A DNA stretch of 63,983 nucleotides, filler included, from an uncultured bacterium (GTDB lineage Bacteria; Hinthialibacterota; Hinthialibacteria; Hinthialibacterales; Hinthialibacteraceae): NCBI GenBank assembly GCA_964449065.1. It is 4 parts of 4 records of this genome, joined end to end, with 100 filler letters (N's around TTAATTAATTAA, not from the genome) between each part and the next. Parts side by side here need not be neighbours in the genome. Positions count along the whole stretch, not along the records: positions 18,456 to 36,716 come from CAYVAZ010000066.1; 3 more parts are not named here. The stretch is one strand, 5' to 3'. Numbering within the stretch: position 1 is the stretch's first letter; every line of letters begins with the position of its first letter. Below are positions 18,456 through 30,861 of the stretch, piece after piece. The position numbers and the translations under genes are program-made. Under the pieces are notes generated by a model. That model searched no databases. It was not told the DNA's origin and worked only from the letters and a program-made list of their open reading frames with translations.

Positions 18456-19390
18456 GTTCCTTGCCATGGAGCGGTCTGCCCCTGACCAAGGGTAATGTCA
18501 TAGGTCAATGTCGCATCACCAGACAAGCCGCTTAAGGTCCAATCGATGCTCCCTTTCGCTGTGAAGGAAACGTCACCGGCCGTGAATTGAACATTCGAGA
18601 TGGTGGAACCGATAGGAGTCAGCTCATTGACCACCGCATCCACCGTTTCGCCACCGCGGACACTTGCCGTAATAGAAATACCGGATAATGAGTCACCGGG
18701 CTGAAAGTCTTCCGTTGGAATTGAGCGGACAACTTGTAAGGGATATTCGGTTATAGCTACATCCCGAATTTCAAACAATCCCAATTGATCTTCGCCTTCA
18801 CCGGTGCCCGCCAAACCTACCAGAACCGGGTCTTCCATTGCAATCACTTCCGTTTGTTGAAACAACCATTCGCCGGCCGCATTCATGGTGAAATAGTGGA
18901 AGCTGTTTCCAATCCGGTCGATGCGAACCGGCCCGATATGGTTATCGCCCAATTCCACATTGCCGTCTACATTTGTCCCGCCGCCTTGTATGGTACGAAA
19001 TGTCGGATAAACCGAACTATCCGCTCCCCCACTATCCGCGGCGGAATTGCTGGTCATTAAATACGAAGCATGAACATCATCCGGCTCAAGACTTTGGCGG
19101 ATCATGATTCCAGCCCGCCCGGCATCGATAACCGGGAACGGGTCGGCTTCAATCGAGAAACTGCCTGACATTTCTGAATGGATGAAATGGAACTGATCGC
19201 TCAGTGATCCACCTCTGCCAATGGTGGTCCCAAGAGCATCCATCTCATACGTGCCGCCGTCAAAACTGGATTGACCGGGCGCCAGGATGGGTTCACCGAC
19301 ATCGACCGCTTCATCAAAAATACCGATCTGAGCCTGTGCCATCGTAACCGACACCGATATTACACTAAAGAAATAGAATAGCATTTTCAT
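18456..19390 (-). CDS. secreted acidic beta-sandwich protein, array paralogue A (3'-truncated by contig end)
   Basis: ATG 19390 with GGAGGAAGT RBS; signal peptide then QIGIFD..DVG; aligns with the three neighbouring ORFs. Confidence 0.85.
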
Positions 19391-19423
19391 AATACTTCCT
19401 CCCAATATTCTAAGTTTATCTAT

Positions 19424-19452
19424 TAACTAACATATTTATTGAAGGAATTCAA
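19424..19452 (-). promoter_or_regulatory. putative extended -10 sigma-70 promoter of paralogue A
   Basis: minus strand TTGAAT-17 nt ending ATGT-TAGTTA. Confidence 0.35.
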
Positions 19453-19488
19453 GTGAATTATTTCGGTATATCGATTGAACATCTTCAT

Positions 19489-19522
19489 AAAAAAGGCACG
19501 GCGATCTCTCACCGTGCCTTTT
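19489..19522 (-). terminator. rho-independent terminator of paralogue B
   Basis: AAAAGGCACGG/CCGTGCCTTTT stem with U-tract just after the stop at 19543. Confidence 0.85.
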
Positions 19523-19542
19523 GGTTGTGTATATTGTGTACA

Positions 19543-22038
19543 CTAATACAACATAAAGTGCTCTACGGAAACCGGTGGTTCAGGAACATCTTCTCCCAAT
19601 GCAAACGCAATCATGCGGTTGAGTAAATCGATGCCCGCTGGAGTAAGGTTTACATCTCCAAGTCCCCAACCAAAGCGTAGTCCAGGTACATTGTTGCCAT
19701 TAACCGTAGTTCCGGCATCAATGACCCAAAATACGGCGGCTTCCGGGTTCTCCGGCAATGTGGCTAGAACCGTTACCCCTTCCGGTGGATTCGCCAAAAA
19801 TGCAACCCCTTCCGGATTTACATGAACTTGTAATTCACCCAAGTCTAATCCTTCGGTTACCGGATGTGTATTGTTCACAATTTCCAAGTTGGTTACATCC
19901 CCTTGTGTGGGAGGGTCGCCGCTTGGTGCAAACGCGAATTCATCGAACAAAAAGCTTTCATATGTAATGAAAGGACGGGGGTCGTTGACATGAATATTCA
20001 GGCCGCCGATGTTGCCGGAACCAACCGAACCGCTCACAATGCCGAATACAGAACCATCCAAATTGGTTGGTAAACTGCCGTCATCGTCAAACTGCTCAAT
20101 GGTCAGACCGAATTGGCTGTGTAGATGAGAAGCGAATACCCGGTCTTGCAAACTAATTTCAGAATCTTCAATAAAGTGAAATACCGTTTCACCTGTTTCC
20201 GCAACCGGATTTCCAGCAATCACGATTGAATCATCTCCACCAATATTTTGTGGAGTTTGATTGGCAATCGTTAATTCTCCATTAAAACTACCGGTTTTAA
20301 ATACCGGAGAATCAATGGCTGGCGCTTCTAAATCATACGTGAGCGACAATCCCTGTCCAGTTAATCCGGTGATGTCCCACGTAATGCTTCCATCAGCATT
20401 TTGGGTTGCATCCCCTGCCGATGCATTGAGGTTTGACAGGGTAAACTCATTAGGAATAAACTCTTGAACGATAACCTCCCCATCAACTGTATTTCTAAGG
20501 ACGACCTGCAATTCTGCCGAAAGCGTATTTTCTCCATTTTCCAAAAAGTCATCCGATAAGCTGCGGGAGGCAATAAATTGCGCTTCCGGATCAAAACTAT
20601 CCAAATCGATATCGGGATTGGTTGTAACCGCAATCCAGTCAATGCTAGAACTGTCTTCTCGTCCGGCAAGATAAATAAAATGTTCACCGGCAGTCAGTTC
20701 AAACGGACGCGGATCGTTGCTGGGGTCTTCTTGTTCCACCCAATCCAGTTCCCATTCTTTCGCGTTTTCAATATTCCAACGGCTGAAGTCTGTACCATCC
20801 GGCGGTATATCAATATCAAAATGCCAAGAGTCACTATTCCCGTCTTCTCCTCGGACATTCCCGAATAAATAATAGGTACCGTCTTCGGGTATCATTAAAG
20901 GAAACTCAATTAAATCGGTTGCTCCGGCAGCCACGTTTATGATAAAAATTCCACTTTCGTTTCTGGGATCAAGTCCCAAACCAAACGCGCCTTCACCGGC
21001 TACATTTTCACCATCTTCAACTTGAATAACGGTTGGAAAAAATGGGTCGGCTTCAAACGGTTGTGCGGGGGGTCCGGTAAATGTTGGGTCGGTGGGGAGG
21101 ACGGAAACTCCGCCGATATAACTTTCATCGTGGATTCCATCGTTAAAGGTTCCTTGCCATGCCACCGAGGAACGGTTCGGCAGAGTTACATCATACGTAA
21201 GAGTCGCTTCACCTGACAATCCCGCCAAATTCCAATCGATGGTTCCATCGCCATTGTCGGTAACATCCCCTGCGGAGGCCTGAACATTGCTTACTGTCGA
21301 ACCGCGTGGAACCACCTCTTGCACGCTTGCATCAACCGTTTCACCATTGCGGACCGTTGCCGTGACCGTGACTTGGTTGAACGAAGCGCCCGGTGAAAAA
21401 TCGGTGCTTGGAAGTGTTCTCATCACATTCAATGGAAACTCTTCGATCGAAACATCGGTAAATTCAAAGATACCGAAATCGCCATCTCCACTGGCTGCCA
21501 GTCCGGCGAACACCGTATCATCCAACGGGACAACTTCTTCATTCAACAGTTCCAGGGTTCCACTGCCATCAATTCGGTACAGGCGAAGCGAGTTGCCCAA
21601 CCGCTCAATGCGAATGGAAACCGATTCCGCATCGTCCGGATCGCCGTCAAGAATGGTCCCGCCGCCTTGCAAAAAGCGGATATGCGGCCAAACGTTGAAA
21701 TCATCTGTCATCAGCAACGAGCCATGCGGAGCGTCTGCGTCTAACGACTGACGAACCATCAAGCCGCCGCGGCCGACTCCACCCACATCAAACGGGGCCG
21801 TTTCAATCGCAAAGCTGCCGGAGAGTTCGCTGTAGACGAAATGAAATTGATCGGTAAGGGAATTGTTCCCTACCCCGGATCCAACGGCATCCACGGTGTA
21901 ATTTCCATCGGAAAAGTCAGCCAAACCGGGAATATCCGGTTCACCAATATCGGAATTTGCATCAAAAACACCGATTTGAGCCATTGAGACAGAAACAGAA
22001 AACACAACAAACAACAACAAAAAAATACTTCTCTTCAT
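19543..22038 (-). CDS. secreted acidic multidomain protein, array paralogue B
   Basis: likely start MKRSIF at 22038 (GGGAG RBS); ConA-like + Ig-like + CBM-like + second Ig-like + glutamine-amidotransferase-like domains; ends PPVSVEHFMLY. Confidence 0.9.
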   Translation of the reverse strand: MKRSIFLLLFVVFSVSVSMAQIGVFDANSDIGEPDIPGLADFSDGNYTVDAVGSGVGNNSLTDQFHFVYSELSGSFAIETAPFDVGGVGRGGLMVRQSLDADAPHGSLLMTDDFNVWPHIRFLQGGGTILDGDPDDAESVSIRIERLGNSLRLYRIDGSGTLELLNEEVVPLDDTVFAGLAASGDGDFGIFEFTDVSIEEFPLNVMRTLPSTDFSPGASFNQVTVTATVRNGETVDASVQEVVPRGSTVSNVQASAGDVTDNGDGTIDWNLAGLSGEATLTYDVTLPNRSSVAWQGTFNDGIHDESYIGGVSVLPTDPTFTGPPAQPFEADPFFPTVIQVEDGENVAGEGAFGLGLDPRNESGIFIINVAAGATDLIEFPLMIPEDGTYYLFGNVRGEDGNSDSWHFDIDIPPDGTDFSRWNIENAKEWELDWVEQEDPSNDPRPFELTAGEHFIYLAGREDSSSIDWIAVTTNPDIDLDSFDPEAQFIASRSLSDDFLENGENTLSAELQVVLRNTVDGEVIVQEFIPNEFTLSNLNASAGDATQNADGSITWDITGLTGQGLSLTYDLEAPAIDSPVFKTGSFNGELTIANQTPQNIGGDDSIVIAGNPVAETGETVFHFIEDSEISLQDRVFASHLHSQFGLTIEQFDDDGSLPTNLDGSVFGIVSGSVGSGNIGGLNIHVNDPRPFITYESFLFDEFAFAPSGDPPTQGDVTNLEIVNNTHPVTEGLDLGELQVHVNPEGVAFLANPPEGVTVLATLPENPEAAVFWVIDAGTTVNGNNVPGLRFGWGLGDVNLTPAGIDLLNRMIAFALGEDVPEPPVSVEHFMLY

Positions 22039-22080
22039 AACTTTTCTCCCTAAACAAAATCGTAATCTATTCTTAACGTA

Positions 22081-22108
22081 ATTATAACATAACTTCACGC
22101 TACGTCAA
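22081..22108 (-). promoter_or_regulatory. sigma-70 promoter of paralogue B (extended -10)
   Basis: minus strand TTGACG-16 nt ending ATGT-TATAAT. Confidence 0.65.
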
Positions 22109-22140
22109 AAAAAACGCCCCGTCTATGGACGAGGCGTTTT
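22107..22140 (-). terminator. rho-independent terminator of paralogue C
   Basis: AAAACGCCCCGTC/GACGAGGCGTTTT stem, long U-tract on the minus strand. Confidence 0.85.
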
Positions 22141-22164
22141 AGTACATATTTAGCGCTTATCATT

Positions 22165-24360
22165 TTAATATAAAGACCACTCATCCACGGTAACAGGGCC
22201 ATCTCCTGTAATCAGTTCGACATCCGTGAAGGTACCAATCGAAAGCGTCCCCACGTCGTGAGCAGTCACCGCGAGTCCTGCAAAGACAGGGTCATCCATT
22301 TCTACGTCTTCCAGAACCAAGGCCTCTACCCGCTCACCGTTCGAATCAACATAGGCATAGGTGATTGTGGTTCCACTGCGGGAAACTTCAACCCGGTTTG
22401 TTAATCCACCGCTAACCAATGTTTCATCGCCACCCCATGCGGCGTTTTCCCCAAAGAATAAGCGCCATTGCGGACCAAAGTCTCTACCTTGTGTGCGAAT
22501 CATGGAGAACCCGAATGCGGATTCCGGTTCCAACTCATTGCGGATCATCGGTCCGGCTTTCGCCCAGGTTGCGTTGCCGCTGAATTGGTCAAGATTTACT
22601 GTTGCCCGCAATGTGACATCACCTGTCACTTCCGAATAAAGGAAATGGAAGTTATCCGCGGTATTCCAAATATCGTTGCCGCTGCCAATCACCGTATAGG
22701 TTCCTGTATCGGGGTCAAAACCAGCAGCACCCGACTCGCCTAAATTGTCACCGCCTGCTTCAGCAATATCCATATTGGCTTGGAATATGCCTGTTCCGGT
22801 GAGACCTTCACGCGGGTCAATGATTTCGCCTGTGAATGGATCAAACGCTGCCGGATCAATGGAGGGATCATTAGTCACTGCAAGCCAATCAATTGATGTG
22901 CTGTCTTCACGGGGGGCAATAAAGAGTGAGTTTTCTCCCTCGGTTAGTCCAAAGAAAGGACGGGGATCAAAATCGGCCGGTTCCCGGCTTTTTACCCAAT
23001 CAAAATGCAGGCTTCTTCCGCCTCCCGAATCCCAAATGGTTAGCGGATCATTGATGGGTTCAAACTCTACATCCACAAAGAACGAGTCACTGTTGCCATC
23101 TTCACCGCGCACATGGCCGAAAATAAATAGATCTCCATAGCCGGCGGGAATATTAATGGGAAATTCCAACCAACCGGCAATCGCGCCGCTTACACCAACC
23201 ATGGTAATACCGCCGTCCGCATCCGGGTCATAGAACAGCCCCCAGTCACCATTTTCTACCGGGTCCCGGACCGGAACGCCATCTTCCACTTGAATGACGA
23301 CCGGATTATCTGGATTCAGTTCAATTGTATCCGCTTCGGCCGCCAAGGCCGGCACTTTGGGAAGCAGCATGTCGCCGCCAATGAAACTTTCGGGATTGAT
23401 ACCATCCGAGAACGTTCCGGTAAATGAAGCCGAACCGCTGGTTCCTAATGTGATGTCATACGTAACGGTCGCTTCGCCGGAATGGCCGTTCAACGTCCAC
23501 GTAAATCCGTTGTCTGACACATTGCTTAGCGTTCCGCCAGAGGCTTGAACATTTGAAATGACGGCATCGGGAGGACCGACTTCTTCGACTACTGCATCTA
23601 CGGTCTCACCATCCCGTGCCTTCGCGGTTAAAGTTACCCCGGTTAATGAAGCGCCGGGTTCGTGGTCTTCAGTCGGCAATGCTCTACCAACCCAGAGTGG
23701 AAATTCCGTCACGGCGACATCATTAAATTCAAATTCTCCAAGTAGTTCGGCCCCGTTTGCCGTGGCTGCCAAACCGGCCAAAACCGTCTCAGACATCGGG
23801 ACAGCTTCGCTTTGGATCAACACCCATTCATCGGAGGTGCTGAAGGTATAAAAGTGGAGGCTGTTGCCGATCCGCTCGATTTTGATCAGACTGATATTGT
23901 TATCCGAAATGCCTCCCGGTTCCTGATCGCCGTCTACGATGGTTCCCCCGCCTTTAATGGTGCGAAGATGCGGGAAAACGGAGCCTTCCGCGGCATTGGT
24001 ATTGCCACCAGGTATCGAAGCGCCAATGCGGAGCCATGATCCATGAACGGAATCTTGATCCAGTGACTGGCGAATCATGATGCCGCCTTCGCCATCCGGC
24101 AACAATGGAAACGGATCGCATTCAATCGCGAAACTGCCGGACATTTCGCTGTAGACGAAATTAAACTCATCCGCGAAGCTGCGGCGGCCGATGGTGGTGC
24201 CCAACGCGTCCATCGTATATGTGCCGTTATCAAACGACGCTTGCCCCGGGCCGAGTATCAAATCGCCGACATCTGCCCGTTCTTCAAAAATACCGATCTG
24301 AGAAAAACTTGCTGAAACAAACAGTGATACAACTGTGAGTGCAAAGAGCGCTCTTTTCAT
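22165..24360 (-). CDS. secreted acidic multidomain protein, array paralogue C
   Basis: signal peptide; shared 3-domain core plus a second ConA-like domain (GSGNDIWNTADNFHFLY..WAKAGPMIR); ends GPVTVDEWSLY. Confidence 0.9.
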   Translation of the reverse strand: MKRALFALTVVSLFVSASFSQIGIFEERADVGDLILGPGQASFDNGTYTMDALGTTIGRRSFADEFNFVYSEMSGSFAIECDPFPLLPDGEGGIMIRQSLDQDSVHGSWLRIGASIPGGNTNAAEGSVFPHLRTIKGGGTIVDGDQEPGGISDNNISLIKIERIGNSLHFYTFSTSDEWVLIQSEAVPMSETVLAGLAATANGAELLGEFEFNDVAVTEFPLWVGRALPTEDHEPGASLTGVTLTAKARDGETVDAVVEEVGPPDAVISNVQASGGTLSNVSDNGFTWTLNGHSGEATVTYDITLGTSGSASFTGTFSDGINPESFIGGDMLLPKVPALAAEADTIELNPDNPVVIQVEDGVPVRDPVENGDWGLFYDPDADGGITMVGVSGAIAGWLEFPINIPAGYGDLFIFGHVRGEDGNSDSFFVDVEFEPINDPLTIWDSGGGRSLHFDWVKSREPADFDPRPFFGLTEGENSLFIAPREDSTSIDWLAVTNDPSIDPAAFDPFTGEIIDPREGLTGTGIFQANMDIAEAGGDNLGESGAAGFDPDTGTYTVIGSGNDIWNTADNFHFLYSEVTGDVTLRATVNLDQFSGNATWAKAGPMIRNELEPESAFGFSMIRTQGRDFGPQWRLFFGENAAWGGDETLVSGGLTNRVEVSRSGTTITYAYVDSNGERVEALVLEDVEMDDPVFAGLAVTAHDVGTLSIGTFTDVELITGDGPVTVDEWSLY

Positions 24361-24475
24361 AGTACTTCCTCCACATTAGATAATATTAAACCGCTATAGC
24401 GATACACCTTTTTAGCATATCTCTTACAGGATTGCAACGGGGATTTAAAAAAATGTCCGAAACGGTAAATTCAGC

Positions 24476-24511
24476 AAAAAAAAAACGCCCCGGCTTTTGA
24501 CGGGGCGTTTT
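24476..24511 (-). terminator. rho-independent terminator of paralogue D
   Basis: AAAACGCCCCG/CGGGGCGTTTT stem with 10-U tract on the minus strand. Confidence 0.85.
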
Positions 24512-24569
24512 GATCAATCCAACAAGTCGATATTGCCGGTGCTCCCCGGCTATTCAACTCTGATATGCT

Positions 24570-24679
24570 CTAGTACTTTTCTAACGATTGGTTGAAGGGT
24601 GTCGATCCCCCCTACCCCCCTTATCAAGGGGGGCAACAACGGATAACCAGCCGTCATTTTTTGATGGACAATCTACTAA
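24570..24679. mobile_element. MITE-like element, third copy of the CTAGTA-bounded family
   Basis: CTAGTAC...TCGATCCCCCCTACCCCCCTTATCAAGGGGGGCAACAACGGATAACCAGCCGTCATTTTTTGATGGACAATCTACTAA matches 14597-14705. Confidence 0.75.
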
Positions 24680-26268
24680 TGCAACATGTATTCAGTGACA
24701 GAAGCGCCCGGGTCTGCTGGAGTCACTTCTGAGAATGTGGCTAAATCAACCGCGTCCGGGTTATTCGTTACTGCAATCCAATCGATCATGGAAGCTCCTT
24801 CACGAGGGCTGAACATGATGAAATTTTCTCCAGGTAAAAAATCAAAAAACGGGCGCGGATCAAACTCAGCTGGATTTCGGCTGCTCACCCAGTCCAAATG
24901 CCAGAGGATACCACTGGGAATTCCATTGCCAAAATCCCAAATCTGCTCATCGTTGTTTTCCGGGGGGAACTCAACACTGACGAAGAATGAATCCGCATTG
25001 CCGTCCGGGCCAAAAACATTTCCGAACATAAATAAGTCACCGTAGTTTTCAGGAATGATGACAGGAATTTCCAAGAATTGAGAAATTCCGCCGGTTATGT
25101 GTATCAATCCTATTCCACTGGCAAGAGACGGATCGGCAATAAATCCCCAGTTCCGTTCATCCGGAAAAAACGGGCGCGCATCTTCAATTTGGATGAGTAC
25201 CACTTCACCGTCAATCAACTGAACCGGTTCTTGATCGGTTTGAAATTCAGGATTTTTCGGCAACACTGCATCCCCGCCGATAAAACTTTCTTCGTTAATT
25301 CCATCGGCAAACACACCTTGCAAGCCAAAGCCGGAACGGGGTCCGTTGGTTAAGTCATAGGTTAAGGTGGCTTCGCCGCTGTGGCCGTTCAGTGTCCAAA
25401 CGATTTCATTGCCATTCAACGCGACTGTACCCGCGGATGCATTTGCATTCGACAAGAGGATGTCAGCAGGGGCACGTTCCGTAATCACGGTATCGACGGA
25501 TTGTCCATCGCGTGCTTTTGCTGTCAATGTAATTCCTGAAATTACCTGGCCTGGATCCACATCATCCGCTGGAATGGACCGTTCAACCCACAATGGAAAT
25601 TCTGTGATTTCAACTTCCGAAAATTCGTATTCACCAAATCCTTCCACGGCTCTGGCTGTAACTGCCAATCCTACTAGAACCGTTTCCGGCATTTGAACTT
25701 CTTCTTCATATTGCAACACCCATTCATCGGACGCATTGCGTGAATACATACGGTAGGTATTTCCAACACGATCCACACGAACCGGACCGACGTTTTCATC
25801 CGTAAAACCACCGGCAGGATCATCATCATCTCCATCTACCATAGACCCGCCGTCTTTCAACCAACGAATGTGAGGGAAATTCGAGCCAACCGTAGCGCCG
25901 GTATTCCCGCCTGCACTTTCGTCCGCAAGACGTGTCCAAGCGACCATGACAGAATTCGCGTCTAAATCTTCCCGAATCATAAAGCCGCCGTGTCCGGTAG
26001 GGCTGAGGGGAAAAATATCACCCTGAATGGAAAAACTGCCGGACATTTCATTGTAAACAAAATAAAACTCATCAAAAAACTGATCTCTGCCGATTTGAGA
26101 ACCGGAACCGCCTACGGTGTATGTCCCGTTCTCAAATGAGGCTTCTCCCGGAATAAATAAAGGCAATTCCGGACCGACATCTTGCTCATTGTTGAAAACA
26201 CCGACCTGAGCCATTGCAGCACTCGCAAAAGCAGACACACCAATGCACATAAAAAGCACTTTCTTCAT
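24676..26268 (-). CDS. secreted acidic multidomain protein, array paralogue D (core only)
   Basis: signal peptide; ConA-like + Ig-like + CBM-like core; ends PGASVTEYMLH; GGAGGAAGT RBS. Confidence 0.9.
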   Translation of the reverse strand: MKKVLFMCIGVSAFASAAMAQVGVFNNEQDVGPELPLFIPGEASFENGTYTVGGSGSQIGRDQFFDEFYFVYNEMSGSFSIQGDIFPLSPTGHGGFMIREDLDANSVMVAWTRLADESAGGNTGATVGSNFPHIRWLKDGGSMVDGDDDDPAGGFTDENVGPVRVDRVGNTYRMYSRNASDEWVLQYEEEVQMPETVLVGLAVTARAVEGFGEYEFSEVEITEFPLWVERSIPADDVDPGQVISGITLTAKARDGQSVDTVITERAPADILLSNANASAGTVALNGNEIVWTLNGHSGEATLTYDLTNGPRSGFGLQGVFADGINEESFIGGDAVLPKNPEFQTDQEPVQLIDGEVVLIQIEDARPFFPDERNWGFIADPSLASGIGLIHITGGISQFLEIPVIIPENYGDLFMFGNVFGPDGNADSFFVSVEFPPENNDEQIWDFGNGIPSGILWHLDWVSSRNPAEFDPRPFFDFLPGENFIMFSPREGASMIDWIAVTNNPDAVDLATFSEVTPADPGASVTEYMLH

Positions 26269-26550: not shown

Positions 26551-27231
26551 ATGAATAGCCCAATAGTTCTATTAAAAAATGTTATAAAGCATTATATTCG
26601 TGGTGAAGAGACCGTTTGCGCGGTGGAAGATATTTCGTTTCAGATGGAAAAAGCCGAGATGGTGGCTTTAACCGGTCCATCCGGTTGTGGAAAATCCACC
26701 TGTCTAAACCTCATCGCCGGAGTAGATGTTCCCGATCAGGGTGAGATTTATATCAAGGGCAAAGACATTACCAAAGCAACATCGAAAGAGTTAACCGATC
26801 ACCGCCGCTTTTCCGTCGGTATCGTCTTTCAATCGTTTCATCTGTTGCCACATCTTACGCTGGAAGAGAATGTATCCATTCCACTTTCGTTGGCGGGAAA
26901 GCGGGATCCCGACCGGGTGGAGTATTTGATCGACCGTGTCGGTTTAAGCCACCGCAAAAGCCACTATCCCACCGAACTCTCAGGCGGTGAGCAGCAGCGC
27001 ACTGCCATTGCCCGCGCCCTGGTGCAAAATCCGGCTGTGGTTATTGGTGATGAACCGACCGGAAATTTGGATCAACACACCGGCGAACAAATTCTTCATC
27101 TCTTGGATGAACTGCGTAAAGAAGAAGAGACCACCATGCTGTTGGCCACTCACGATCTTAACCTTGCACAAAAAGCCGACCGGATTATTCAAATGCGCGA
27201 CGGCAAGATCGAGAACGGGGCGGGCGCATGA
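26551..27231 (+). CDS. ABC transporter ATP-binding protein (LolD/MacB-like)
   Basis: [29 protein letters not shown]. Confidence 0.95.
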
Positions 27232-29783
27232 TTTTACGCGCGTTTTTTCTTCGGTTCGTAACCAAACATCCCATCCGTTTTCTGGCTACTATTTTTGGAG
27301 TTGCCATCGGTGTTGGTTCTGTCATCGCGATTGTGCTTTCCTGTCAAGCCGCGATCCGCGCAATGGTGGAAGATGTTGAAGTGATCGCCGGACGCGCGCA
27401 GTTTGAAATCACCTCACCCGGAAGCATTCCGCAGACTTTGTTGGGGGACTTACGCTATCTCGCCAAAGACGCCCACATTGCCCCGGTTGTTGACGGTTTG
27501 GTCTTTGTACCGAAACTCAACGATATGATTCGTGTTTTGGGTTTGGATATGCTGACGGACGCATCGTTCCGTGAATTGGAGTGGGAAGGCAACGAAGGCA
27601 TTCAGCAGGAACAGATGATTGAGATTTTGCGAGCCGAGGGAGTATTGGTACCCCATGCCTTGGCCCAACAACTGGATATACAATCCGGGTCATCTTTTGA
27701 GATTGTATCGCAGGCACAAACGCATTCGTTAGATGTTATCACAACGTTTGAGCCACAAAACTTTTCTTCCAGTTGGGACCGAATCCTCATTATGGATATT
27801 GCCAAAGCGCAAACGCTGCTAGGCAAAGGCGGGTATATTGACCGGATTGAAATCATCCCGCGCGTTGGCGTAAAAGAGCAGGAACTGAAATCGCAGATCG
27901 TATCCGCGCTGCCGCCGCAATACAATCTCGGCACGCCGTCAGACCGCAGTGATCAAACCGCGCGCATGATTCGTGCCTTGCGCTTTAACCTTACCGCGCT
28001 ATCCGGCATCTCTCTGTTGGTCGGTGCCGTGCTGGTTGCCATAACGTTGTATACATCCGTCATCCAGCGGAAATACATCATCGCGCTGCTGCAATCGCTT
28101 GGGGCGTCCCGAAAACAAATCGCGTATGGTGTATTGATTGAAGCCGGCAGCATCGGCATTTTGGGCGGGATCACCGGTGTCGTCTTCGGGATAGTTGGAT
28201 CGTGGATGGCGCTCTCCAGTGTACGCGCGACCGTAGCGGCGGTGGTGCAGGGCGTACCGGCTTCCAGCATCCAAATTGAGCCTATGCTGGTTGTTGTTGG
28301 TATTGCATTGGGCTTAATGGTTTCGCTTCTATCATCGTATTGGGCGGTACGTGAAGCGTTAAAAACGCCGCCATTGCAAGGCTTAAAAGCCGATAATCCC
28401 GAACGAAAAACGGTCACGAGCTATTTTGTTAATGTTGGGCTGGCTTTGTTGTTTGTCATCATTGCGATTGGCTCAATTTATTTGCCTCCTTACAAAGGGC
28501 TTCCCGTACCCGCTTTGTTCTCTGCTCTCTTTGTGCTATTAACATTTGTCACCTTATCACCGCTTGCGGTCGATATGACAACATGGCTTGTCCATAAAAC
28601 TGTCCGAAGTGTGAAAGCGGTTGTGATCCCATTAGCGGCATCCAGTCTCGCCGCCGCAAGAGAGCGAACCGCATTAGCCGCTTCAGCAATCTGCTTGTCA
28701 ACCGCGTTGGCAATATCCATGACGATTATGATTTCTTCCTTCCGCCAAACCATCGTGGATTGGACCAGTCAAGCCACACTGTCCGATTTATGGATTCGTC
28801 CGTTGAAAACATCATCGGGAGTGCCAGCGGGGAACCTGTCTCCATCATTGATTGATCTCGCTGTCAAGGAATTTGGAGTCGAGCGCGTTGATCCATTCTA
28901 CCGCTCGGAAACCATCATCGATGGCGAGAAAGTGACTTTGGGCGCGGGCGCGTTTCACCCGGTCCGCACGCGCACCGGCGGGGTACCCTTTATGGATGAG
29001 CGTCCCTCCCGCGAGGTGTTTCAAGAGGCGCATAAGAACAACGCTGTGCTGGTGAATGAATCCTTTATGCGCCGCTTTGGATACGGCAAAGGCGATGTCA
29101 TCACCATGCAGGTGCAGGATCAAACCATCCAGCGAAAAATCGAAGGAGTCTTTTACGATTACTCCAGCCACCAGGGTAACGTTATCATGGATAAAGATGA
29201 TTTTTTGCAATACTACACTACTGAAGGGCCGGAAGGCATTGGTGTGTTTCTTCCCGATGGGATTTCAGCCCAAGAAGGCCGAGAAACGTTGCGCGAGAAA
29301 ATTCCGCCAAATTACGCAGTTGATATCATGCTCAATCAAGAACTGCGGCAAGAAATCATGCGGGTATTCGAACGCACCTTCTCCATCACCTATGCATTGC
29401 AGATAATTTCATCCGTCGTGGCGGGGATTGCGGTCCTTTCCGTGCTCTTCGCGCTGGTTGGTGAGCGAAAGCAGGATTTGGCATTGCTGCAATCCATTGG
29501 GGCAACCGGTGTGCAGGTTATCCAAATGGTCATCGGCAAAGCGCTTATAATGGGAGTGATTGGTTTGATTGGAGGGATAGCGGCAGGCTATTTTGTGGGG
29601 GTGATCCTAGTCGAAGTGGTCAACCTGCAATCCTTCAACTGGACGCTGCGCTTTGCGATGCCTTGGATGGAGATTTCTTTTATGGCTGTTCTTGTATTGA
29701 TTGCGTGCAGTTTGGCGGCCATCGCCCCGGCTCTTACGGTTGCCAACCAAAGTTTGCAGGAGGTATTACGTGCCGATGAATAA
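27228..29783 (+). CDS. ABC transporter permease, double FtsX/MacB type (AttF/G-like)
   Basis: two FtsX-type halves (IALLQSLGAS, LALLQSIGAT); ATGA overlap with the ATPase. Confidence 0.9.
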   Translation: MILRAFFLRFVTKHPIRFLATIFGVAIGVGSVIAIVLSCQAAIRAMVEDVEVIAGRAQFEITSPGSIPQTLLGDLRYLAKDAHIAPVVDGLVFVPKLNDMIRVLGLDMLTDASFRELEWEGNEGIQQEQMIEILRAEGVLVPHALAQQLDIQSGSSFEIVSQAQTHSLDVITTFEPQNFSSSWDRILIMDIAKAQTLLGKGGYIDRIEIIPRVGVKEQELKSQIVSALPPQYNLGTPSDRSDQTARMIRALRFNLTALSGISLLVGAVLVAITLYTSVIQRKYIIALLQSLGASRKQIAYGVLIEAGSIGILGGITGVVFGIVGSWMALSSVRATVAAVVQGVPASSIQIEPMLVVVGIALGLMVSLLSSYWAVREALKTPPLQGLKADNPERKTVTSYFVNVGLALLFVIIAIGSIYLPPYKGLPVPALFSALFVLLTFVTLSPLAVDMTTWLVHKTVRSVKAVVIPLAASSLAAARERTALAASAICLSTALAISMTIMISSFRQTIVDWTSQATLSDLWIRPLKTSSGVPAGNLSPSLIDLAVKEFGVERVDPFYRSETIIDGEKVTLGAGAFHPVRTRTGGVPFMDERPSREVFQEAHKNNAVLVNESFMRRFGYGKGDVITMQVQDQTIQRKIEGVFYDYSSHQGNVIMDKDDFLQYYTTEGPEGIGVFLPDGISAQEGRETLREKIPPNYAVDIMLNQELRQEIMRVFERTFSITYALQIISSVVAGIAVLSVLFALVGERKQDLALLQSIGATGVQVIQMVIGKALIMGVIGLIGGIAAGYFVGVILVEVVNLQSFNWTLRFAMPWMEISFMAVLVLIACSLAAIAPALTVANQSLQEVLRADE

Positions 29784-30861
29784 ATACTGTTTTATGCTGC
29801 TGCTATCATGTGTTTCTGCTTTTGCGGATGAGCCGGAATGGAAACGCATCTACCCCGGAGTGGAATTTTCCTTTCCCCGCGACCACGGTTCGCATCCCGA
29901 TACCCAGACCGAATGGTGGTATGTCACCGGGCAAGGCACCGATGAGCAAGGGAAGGAAATCGGCTATCAATTCACCATCTTCCGCTTCGGTATTATTCAT
30001 GAAGATGAACAGGAAGATTCCGATACGCTGCAACCCAATCACTTGCTGATGGGACACATGGCGGTTGCCGATATATCGAACCAATCCTTTTACAAAGCGG
30101 AACGCATCCGCCGCGCGGGCGCGGGTTTTGCCGGGGCATCCGAAGAGAAGATGTATTCATGGATCGGTGATTGGGAAATCGATCAAGATGAAACCGGAAC
30201 CATTACCATCAAAGCAACGGCGCGGGAAGAAGGGATTTCACTCAACCTAACATTGAATCCGCTAAAAAAACCGGTCTTTCACGGCAAAGATGGCTATTCA
30301 CAAAAGGGGGAAGAAGTCGGCAACGCATCCGTTTACTATAGTTATACACGCATCCAAACTTCTGGAACCATAACCATCGAAGGCACAGAGCATCAGTTTA
30401 CCGGCACATCTTGGTTTGATCACGAATACGGCAGCAGCCAATTGGGCGAAGGCGTGGCAGGTTGGGATTGGTGGGGTATTCACCTTGATGACGGCAGTGA
30501 ACTGATGCTTTATCAACTGCGCTATAAAGAAGGCGGCGCAATTCCGCAATCATCCGCAACCTTAGTAAAGCCCTCGGGTGAAGATATTCAATTCAATAAA
30601 GAGGATTGGATTCTGACTCCGCTATCGTTTTGGGAAAGTAAAAGAACCGGAGGAAAATATCCTGTGGAATGGGAATTGAAAATCCCCAAACACAATATCA
30701 ATATCAATTTGCAAGCAAAGTTAAACAACACCGAAATGGTCACAGACCGCTCAACCGGGGTGACCTATTGGGAAGGCCCGGTTGCCGTCACCGGCAGCCA
30801 TACCGGATCCGGCTATATGGAACTGACGGGCTATGCGGGAATATTTAACAATACATTTTAG
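29776..30861 (+). CDS. lipocalin-like AttH/CrtC family protein
   Basis: FSFPRDHGSHP..EWWY, YYSY.R, WFDHE, GWDW, YWEG, GYMELTGY; likely start MNKYCF with signal peptide. Confidence 0.9.
   Translation: MNKYCFMLLLSCVSAFADEPEWKRIYPGVEFSFPRDHGSHPDTQTEWWYVTGQGTDEQGKEIGYQFTIFRFGIIHEDEQEDSDTLQPNHLLMGHMAVADISNQSFYKAERIRRAGAGFAGASEEKMYSWIGDWEIDQDETGTITIKATAREEGISLNLTLNPLKKPVFHGKDGYSQKGEEVGNASVYYSYTRIQTSGTITIEGTEHQFTGTSWFDHEYGSSQLGEGVAGWDWWGIHLDDGSELMLYQLRYKEGGAIPQSSATLVKPSGEDIQFNKEDWILTPLSFWESKRTGGKYPVEWELKIPKHNININLQAKLNNTEMVTDRSTGVTYWEGPVAVTGSHTGSGYMELTGYAGIFNNTF

Follow-up and report, generated by a model that had tools for sequence, protein, structure and literature searches.

An array of secreted paralogues with a shared C-terminal tail

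The window analyzed here is a stretch of 63,983 nucleotides from an uncultured bacterium of the phylum Hinthialibacterota (GenBank assembly GCA_964449065.1), made up of four contigs joined by N linkers. At the end of one of these, contig C66, lies an array of four adjacent paralogous genes (Table 1), whose products all begin with a typical Sec signal, as judged by eye with no SignalP run. The three complete products finish in a similar nine-residue sequence, which we refer to as the tail. A first-pass annotation had described this arrangement, and the coordinates and sequences agree with it; it had further proposed that the tail is a portable tag for a lineage-specific secretion or surface-attachment pathway.

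The complete paralogues have about 500 N-terminal residues in common, at 40-50% identity, and differ past the shared part, where one has nothing more, one a second lectin-like domain, and one an Ig-like and a further domain. Retention of the tail while the upstream domains are swapped, as the annotation supposed, is also seen among database homologues of the array proteins: 24 of 25 keep the tail behind different last domains, and the 25th looks truncated. No homologue of an array protein was found in genomes G026, G028, G029 and G033.

In an AlphaFold model of paralogue 2 (731 residues, pLDDT 77), beta-sandwiches follow one another in a chain, and the last domain strand stops at residue 718. 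Isolated bridges are all that the tail forms, at a pLDDT of about 66-70, with no continuous domain strand; the outcome that the annotation had named as a refutation, a tail completing a beta-sandwich, is thus not seen in the model. The best fold matches of the model are beta-sandwich, lectin/LamG-type domains, and the sequence has a weak match to DUF1349. Terminator-like hairpins follow paralogues 1 and 2, so the genes of the array are probably transcribed separately; the hairpins come from a consensus scan only, in which their total count was not above that of shuffled sequence.

Table 1. Features of the array (positions in the window) and of the giant minor pilin locus of the same genome (positions in the loci named)
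Feature	Position	Strand	Basis
Paralogue 1, 530 aa: Sec signal, lectin-like beta-sandwich, Ig-like domain, second beta-sandwich, Pro/acidic linker, tail	24676..26268	-	layout via homology to modelled paralogue 2
Tail ASVTEYMLH of paralogue 1, Y at W position	24679..24705	-	
Paralogue 2, 731 aa: paralogue 1 layout plus second copy of first lectin-like domain, then tail	22165..24360	-	model and fold matches
Tail VTVDEWSLY of paralogue 2, canonical	22168..22194	-	
Paralogue 3, 831 aa from likely start: shared core, second Ig-like domain, different last domain, tail	19543..22038	-	
Tail VSVEHFMLY of paralogue 3, F at W position	19546..19572	-	
Paralogue 4, C-terminus missing: gene runs off contig C66	18456..19390	-	
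Terminator-like hairpin 3' of paralogue 1	24482..24511	-	consensus scan
Terminator-like hairpin 3' of paralogue 2	22115-22131		consensus scan
Giant PilK homologue, ~2200 aa (contigs C103, C269)	L065:9816-12200 and L080:2943-7160		
Conserved 420-aa secreted protein directly after giant PilK, end N-L-[FY]-[FY]-R-E	L080:1543-2811		

The tail is frequent at gene ends and found on unrelated proteins

The genome under study, G000, is 87% complete, and our own hexamer model of its genes gives 4234, of which 4096 have a stop. The regular expression derived from the array by the first-pass annotation already finds 10 proteins, seven of them outside the window. An iterated matrix scores at least 10 at 50 of the 4096 gene ends, compared with 0.1 expected, and at 33 of 1,352,082 internal positions. 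When up to three trailing residues are allowed, 74 gene ends score at least 9 (0.15 expected); the seed for this set relied in part on the signal-peptide call. The presence of the tail on gene ends is not due to chance: it is real and widespread. A scan for multi-copy internal tails turned up no scaffold protein, and an ESM Atlas search with the last 26 residues gave nothing usable.

The consensus of the nine residues is [S/T/V/A]-x-[V/I]-x-[E/N/D]-W-[S/E/M]-[L/V/I]-[Y/F/H]. The pattern [ST]-V-x-x-[FWY] proposed earlier needs two corrections: over the genome as a whole the key residue is W (64 of 74 tails), and the S/T stands two places before the V, not one. Three places after the W, 61 of the 74 have Y, F, L or M, and the tails stop 3-5 residues past the W. 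That the motif closes the protein is true of most; 18 of the 74 continue for another one or two residues.

The tail is not confined to the family of the array, since the 74 proteins fall into 50 BLAST families. Using our own crude predictors, a signal peptide is found in 45 of 54 plain-regex matches but in 1043 of 4026 other genes, while a membrane helix after residue 60 is found in none of the 54; enrichment among secreted proteins and the lack of a membrane helix had both been anticipated. We scanned 63 of the 74 proteins against Pfam and obtained a match for 24, including LamG (6), CBM9-like (3), FG-GAP (2), Kelch, WD40 and fasciclin domains as well as subtilase, heparinase, glucose/sorbosone dehydrogenase, DUF1501 and others. 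The DUF1501 protein has a twin-arginine (Tat) signal, which fits export in a folded state. As a class the tail proteins are acidic, cysteine-poor and lysine-poor (1.2% lysine, compared with 5.0% in other signal-peptide proteins). Look-alike proteins without a called tail number only 10, and four of these have divergent tail ends.

A separate class of very large secreted proteins in the same genome (on contigs C55, C43, C207, C162 and C384) shares a different C-terminal region, containing N-P-x-S-G-A-V, which is possibly a further sorting domain.

The tail occurs in at least three lineages

We used a DNA pattern for the tail, with its reverse as control, to survey other genomes. In 33 of 35 genomes of the Hinthialibacterota class it gave 8-89 matches, compared with 0-13 for the control. 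The remaining two gave six (G026) and two (G028), and true tails were read in both, so that the class holds no negative genome for profiling. Phylogenetic profiling had been recommended as a way to find partner genes, and one T2SS (type II secretion system) secretin did seem to track the tail, being present in 32 of the 35. It was not found in G026, G028 and G034, which have tails, and as the same type is absent from the tail-bearing genome G383 we dropped it as a tracker.

Among 366 genomes outside the class, two of one family stood out, with 13 and 10 matches and none for the control. Eleven of 12 loci read in these genomes are true tails, and their lineage is Sumerlaeota. Within Sumerlaeota the pattern matches in 58 of 75 genomes; families f272, f274, f276, f277 and most of f278 have zero matches. 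Zero matches need not mean zero tails, because G409, which has none, yet carries a variant tail beside a pilin gene. In a third lineage, represented by G183, a canonical tail was found on one signal-peptide protein in 320 kb read, and in G337 there is one tail-like end in 80 kb read; the pattern counts for these two genomes are 9 versus 2 in the control and 2 versus 3. For two further genomes the excess did not consist of tails: a single repeated 24-mer makes up 10 of the 15 matches in G400, and 6 of 10 loci in G096 were read as lacking a tail. G117, whose single locus read has no tail, and G257 also show an excess of pattern matches and stay candidates. Because at least three lineages carry the tail, 'lineage-specific' was too narrow a term, while the accompanying idea of secretion or attachment is supported.

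It is worth asking whether the tail performs any targeting. It could instead be an element of stability or quality control, such as a folding cap or protease handle, that has spread among periplasmic proteins. A nine-residue motif is easily copied, and the AlphaFold model does contain a few bridges between tail and protein. However, a Gly/Pro/acidic linker separates the tail from about 50 unrelated families, the tail is kept as the domains upstream are swapped, and it is conserved over three lineages. We regard this explanation as very improbable.

Tail genes adjoin an expanded family of pilins

G000 contains 113 pilin-like genes, and about 99 of them belong to a single GspG-like family, in which the end is conserved as P-[S/T]-N-G-x-x-S-x-G-D while the middle varies. 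Apart from the methylation motif, these pilins reach no family cut-off. The family has about 100 members in G000 and in G009 (109 in the latter) and 207 in G021.

A pilin gene adjoins 17 of the 74 tail genes, whereas 300 random sets of signal-peptide genes gave a mean of 3.0 and a maximum of 8. The pilin family takes up 21 of the slots next to tail genes, the tail proteins' own family 8, and any other family at most 3. Among the contigs listed, a pilin stands directly 3' of the tail gene in 3 of 43 cases in G009 (rough expectation 0.46) and in 3 of 12 in G021 (0.33), a weak recurrence of the excess, and G383, like G409, provides a single example of a tail gene beside a pilin. The pilin motif has 13-70 matches in all 23 Hinthialibacterota tested and 8-60 in all 39 Sumerlaeota tested. 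We also counted it in 18 outsiders, hand-picked for PilK-like matches (13) or for size (5): sixteen have 0-1 matches, and the other two are G183 (26) and G337 (25), whose canonical tail and tail-like end, respectively, were found after the pilin expansion had flagged both genomes.

Three related pilins of G000 (C426:1877-2476, C130:12401-12979 and C135:2056-2646) have an extension at the C-terminus that contains a segment resembling the tail, S/A/D-[VI]-x-[END]-W. The expected number is about 0.1, but the three probably have one origin; the segment may be a hint that a pilin itself binds the tail. We rejected a likeness between the tail and the GspG end D-I-G-N-W, since the two agree in register only and the matrix scores are -5 to -10.

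Adjacency to pilins could also arise if both kinds of gene merely share variable surface loci. The tail would then be a pilus-independent surface anchor with a role like that of PEP-CTERM, processed by a protease or transferase or bound by a surface-layer or outer-membrane protein. The uniformity of the cargo class in lysine, charge and cysteine content, together with its 10 look-alikes, agrees with such an anchor, as does the lack of a pilin neighbour for most tail genes. In related phyla, pilin-like genes stand in the same loci as PEP-CTERM genes, a point for which we found no supporting paper. However, the tail has no membrane helix or basic tail, and neighbour clustering shows no enzyme family enriched near tail genes, although no search for exosortase or rhombosortase families was made. 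The third lineage, moreover, was discovered by starting from pilins. An anchored protein would still need to cross the outer membrane, and SprA of the type IX secretion system (T9SS) was above cut-off in none of five genomes (G021 has two weak 40-residue matches; the control genomes were silent, and PorU and PorV were not searched). An anchor of this kind is unlikely in our view.

Tail-bearing lineages share one filament machine

The lineages that carry the tail share one machine of PilB, PilT, PilC and minor pilins, with a TPR secretin in both phyla checked. In G183, PilT, PilB, PilC, the minor pilins H-I-J-K, a cohesin-like gene and five pilins form one operon. The same parts are scattered in G000 over contigs C54, C15, C103/C269 and C8, with three of the expanded pilins behind PilC. 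We infer that this machine includes the expanded pilins and, by way of these, the tail proteins as well.

Secretins number 3-12 per genome. G383, which is assembled in one contig, has three only, among them a T2SS type and a large TPR-bearing type that are both shared with G000. A contiguous locus in G112 holds an open PilK (described below) with a large gene after it, along with PilM and a secretin similar to the TPR type.

Several other genes deserve mention. Three lineages encode a double cohesin-like secreted protein (G000 C8:20302-22269; L078; L168; L302) beside the PilM/secretin genes or within the pilus operon. In G000 and G009 it lies near the secretin operon, whereas in G183 it is part of the pilus operon, and an ESM Atlas search with it gave only leads below 0.9. 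A T2SS secretin of G029 (L020:3-10580, contig C6) lies in an open frame 3526 aa or more in length, with 27 Secretin_N repeats, and would form an unusually long periplasmic channel. Its orthologues have frames of 1600-4000 aa in family f5, and 6 repeats in f1 and f3. A TPR lipoprotein shares an operon (G000 C57:5259-8421; L012; L017) with two short secretins that have no N domains, and this arrangement is conserved in several families.

Candidate readers of the tail

Taking together the tail, its spread, its types of cargo, its adjacency to the expanded pilins and the shared machine, our preferred reading, to which we assign a probability of roughly 45%, is that the tail serves as a portable address label for a type IV filament machine (pilus/T2SS family), which would read it through a plug-like strand added to a pilin-family subunit. 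Tail proteins would be exported to the periplasm by Sec or Tat and fold there. The tail would dock as an added beta-strand on a PilK/PilX-like subunit at the tip or on the expanded pilins, and the cargo would pass through the secretin, to be displayed on the filament or released from it. Each cell would possess 100-200 pilin variants, together with lectin-like or enzymatic cargos that are interchangeable and number in the dozens. Strand addition appears better suited than a carboxylate clamp to the 18 tails with extra residues after the aromatic.

It is possible that the tail acts as a plug does, with PilK as a candidate reader. A giant PilK/PilX-like minor pilin (1750-2300 aa) is present in all 35 genomes of the Hinthialibacterota class. 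It is related to GspK (hhalign 95.7%, weak NCBIfam match), has many Asp-rich loops and a lamin-tail domain, and shows a weak likeness to Verru_Chthon cassette protein A. In every Hinthialibacterota end read (19 aligned and 29 printed, in overlapping sets) the giant PilK stops after the penultimate strand, and we call this form open. An ordinary GspK of G000 has the last strand, with I-x-x-W, in a weak model (pLDDT 58).

Several observations weigh against the preferred reading, and most of them concern PilK. In all 31 Sumerlaeota loci read, including that of G383 and irrespective of whether the genome is tail-rich or tail-poor, the nearest PilK carries its own last strand, and PilK is complete in G183 and G337 too. 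Profiles of the PilK N-terminus and of the open type found no open orthologue in Sumerlaeota; a small, seemingly open PilX-like gene of G383 was rejected as the reader because it has no counterpart in G000. Open PilK also has a likely separate donor for the missing strand: the 420-aa protein of Table 1, whose own end is plug-like, occurs in 27 of the 35 Hinthialibacterota and directly follows open PilK in all 12 loci aligned. Open PilK occurs in G112 and G122 as well, both without an excess of tails. Among natural last strands of PilK, 29 of 50 have I or V three places before the W, a likeness of skeleton only, and their tail-matrix scores are at chance. As for the expanded pilins, 57 of the 74 tail genes have no pilin neighbour, and against a composition-matched control the adjacency is 16 of 63 versus 0 of 10 (p=0.10, underpowered). 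The pilin expansion is also found in Sumerlaeota without a strict tail match, so it is not sufficient, and the counts of tails and pilins are not proportional (89 and 109 in G009, 36 and 207 in G021).

The 420-aa protein has no Pfam or NCBIfam match and is likely a stand-in for PilY1 that has no propeller. Family f5 (real matches in 0 of 7) and G026 yielded no dedicated donor gene. We also observed large open-ended PilK homologues in other lineages that lack this tail (L178 in G112, L179 in G122, P0074, P0111, P0132, P0152, P0154 and P0162); a donor of its own, or another kind of tail, is possible for each. A complex prediction with the last 30 residues of paralogue 2 and the N- and C-terminal parts of open PilK as separate chains, in the absence of PilI and PilJ, scored 0.00 with controls that did not fold, and so counts neither for nor against PilK. 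Given the closed PilK of two lineages and the separate donor gene, PilK is only a candidate reader; the expanded pilins, the TPR region of the secretin and the cohesin-like protein are further candidates.

The last two of these would make the tail an export signal for a secretin machine that is read by a non-pilin part, with release of the cargo to the medium. Besides the TPR domains of the large secretin and the cohesin-like operon protein, the GspC/N0 region of the shared T2SS could serve as that part. Such a reader does not require an open PilK, so the closed form in two lineages poses no problem for it. TPR domains are established binders of terminal peptides, two of the mere three secretins of G383 are of the TPR-bearing and T2SS types it has in common with G000, and the double cohesin-like protein lies close to secretin or pilus genes in each of G000, G009 and G183. 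The extra terminal residues of 18 tails would be awkward for a carboxylate clamp, however; both secretin types are present, too, where strict tails are few or absent; and the pairing with individual pilin genes is left unexplained. We consider this explanation rather unlikely. When the readings that involve some secretin machine are pooled, a tie between the tail and such a machine is probable.

Neighbouring genes

Directly upstream of the array, and divergent from it, are genes for an ABC ATPase, an 851-aa permease and a lipocalin-like (CrtC) protein (26551-30861), with no link found to the array. Bases 1-50 of the window recur on two further contigs, C8 and C428, which suggests a repeat or an insertion element at the contig end.

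Comparison with known systems

To our knowledge, known substrates of the T2SS family share no linear signal, and the choice of cargo has long been an open question. With a label of nine residues that each genome carries on dozens of unrelated proteins, and that is linked in three lineages to the same conserved filament machine, the choice can be put to the test by means of synthetic peptides and purified pilin domains. At a minimum, the surface proteome of two uncultured phyla that degrade polymers can be predicted from the tail. A bolder form of the preferred reading is a modular type IV filament kit, in which 100-200 interchangeable pilins and dozens to more than 100 unrelated lectins and enzymes are all loaded by one nine-residue plug, with no PilY1 propeller. 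We put this forward as a tentative and somewhat doubtful possibility; if true, it would be the first linear, transferable cargo signal common to many substrates of the pilus/T2SS family.

We found no description of the tail in the full-text literature, a search that lay outside supplements and subscription papers and could miss a brief mention. In the available part of the paper on Hinthialibacterota, neither 'secretion' nor 'C-terminal' occurs (PMC9324843), and that of the Sumerlaeota paper mentions only twitching pili (PMC8092238).

Like PEP-CTERM, GlyGly-CTERM, MYXO-CTERM and LPXTG, the tail is a portable label at the C-terminus of dozens of exported proteins poor in lysine and is restricted to particular phyla. 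Unlike them, it lacks both a membrane helix and a basic cluster. None of the NCBIfam sorting families matches it, in keeping with the earlier suggestion that it is not an already described CTERM family, and the same holds for the sorting-signal models of NCBIfam and Pfam in general. The C-terminal domain of T9SS substrates (TIGR04183 or FlgD-type) offers a second parallel, in that a signal peptide and a shared C-terminal label are found on many unrelated lectin-like or hydrolytic proteins. That domain is about 70-80 residues long, whereas the tail has nine residues and is not a folded domain. TIGR04183 and TIGR04131 have no match in four proteins of the window (E<=1) or in 16 further tail proteins (E<=0.05). 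With the signal of the beta-barrel assembly machinery (BAM) the tail shares a terminal aromatic, but it has no alternating hydrophobic pattern and tolerates extra residues after the aromatic, and its cargos are soluble sandwiches, propellers and enzymes rather than barrels.

Type IVb pili export cargo in the pairs TcpF/TcpB and CofJ/CofB. There, a pilus carries a non-pilin cargo to which a minor pilin binds by way of a short peptide at one terminus, as set out in the available part of a recent preprint (10.64898/2026.09.18.752573). The type IVb signal is N-terminal and serves one cargo, whereas the tail is C-terminal, is found on many cargos, and accompanies a gene set like that of type IVa pili (T4aP) and the T2SS.

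The closest comparison is with the plug of PilC/PilY1, for which we again rely on the accessible portions of the sources. In PilC/PilY1, the terminal 10-12 residues join PilK as an added beta-strand (PMC13533445, PMC13711793, 10.64898/2026.09.18.752573), a strand that GspK of the T2SS supplies itself (PMC13533445). The plug contains a conserved W, and the residue three places after it is hydrophobic (PMC13711793); a crystal structure is available, and there is little sequence conservation between systems (10.64898/2026.09.18.752573). The tail resembles it in predicted Sec export, in a length of about 10 terminal residues, in the W and the hydrophobic residue at W+3, and in being poorly structured alone, and the genomes have PilB, PilT, PilC, H-I-J-K and a secretin. 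The differences are also clear. The PilY1 propeller, called invariable in the part of the preprint available, is absent from the tail proteins: PF05567 / IPR008707 has no match in 63 of them (E<=1e-6) or in the proteins of the window (E<=0.01), and a genome search with PF05567 found none in five genomes, where the controls were silent too. There are about 70 cargos per genome rather than one to a few (myxobacterial genomes average two PilY1; PMC13190605), and the flanks of the W are acidic and hydrophobic rather than W-R-E. PilK is complete in two of the three tail lineages, and binding of the tail to it is only predicted. One 2026 preprint, in its accessible part, proposes the PilC plug as a means to display chosen cargos on pili; the tail system may be a natural, large-scale version of such display. 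In relation to all of these systems, the tail is a variant of C-terminal sorting signals that we have so far not found described.

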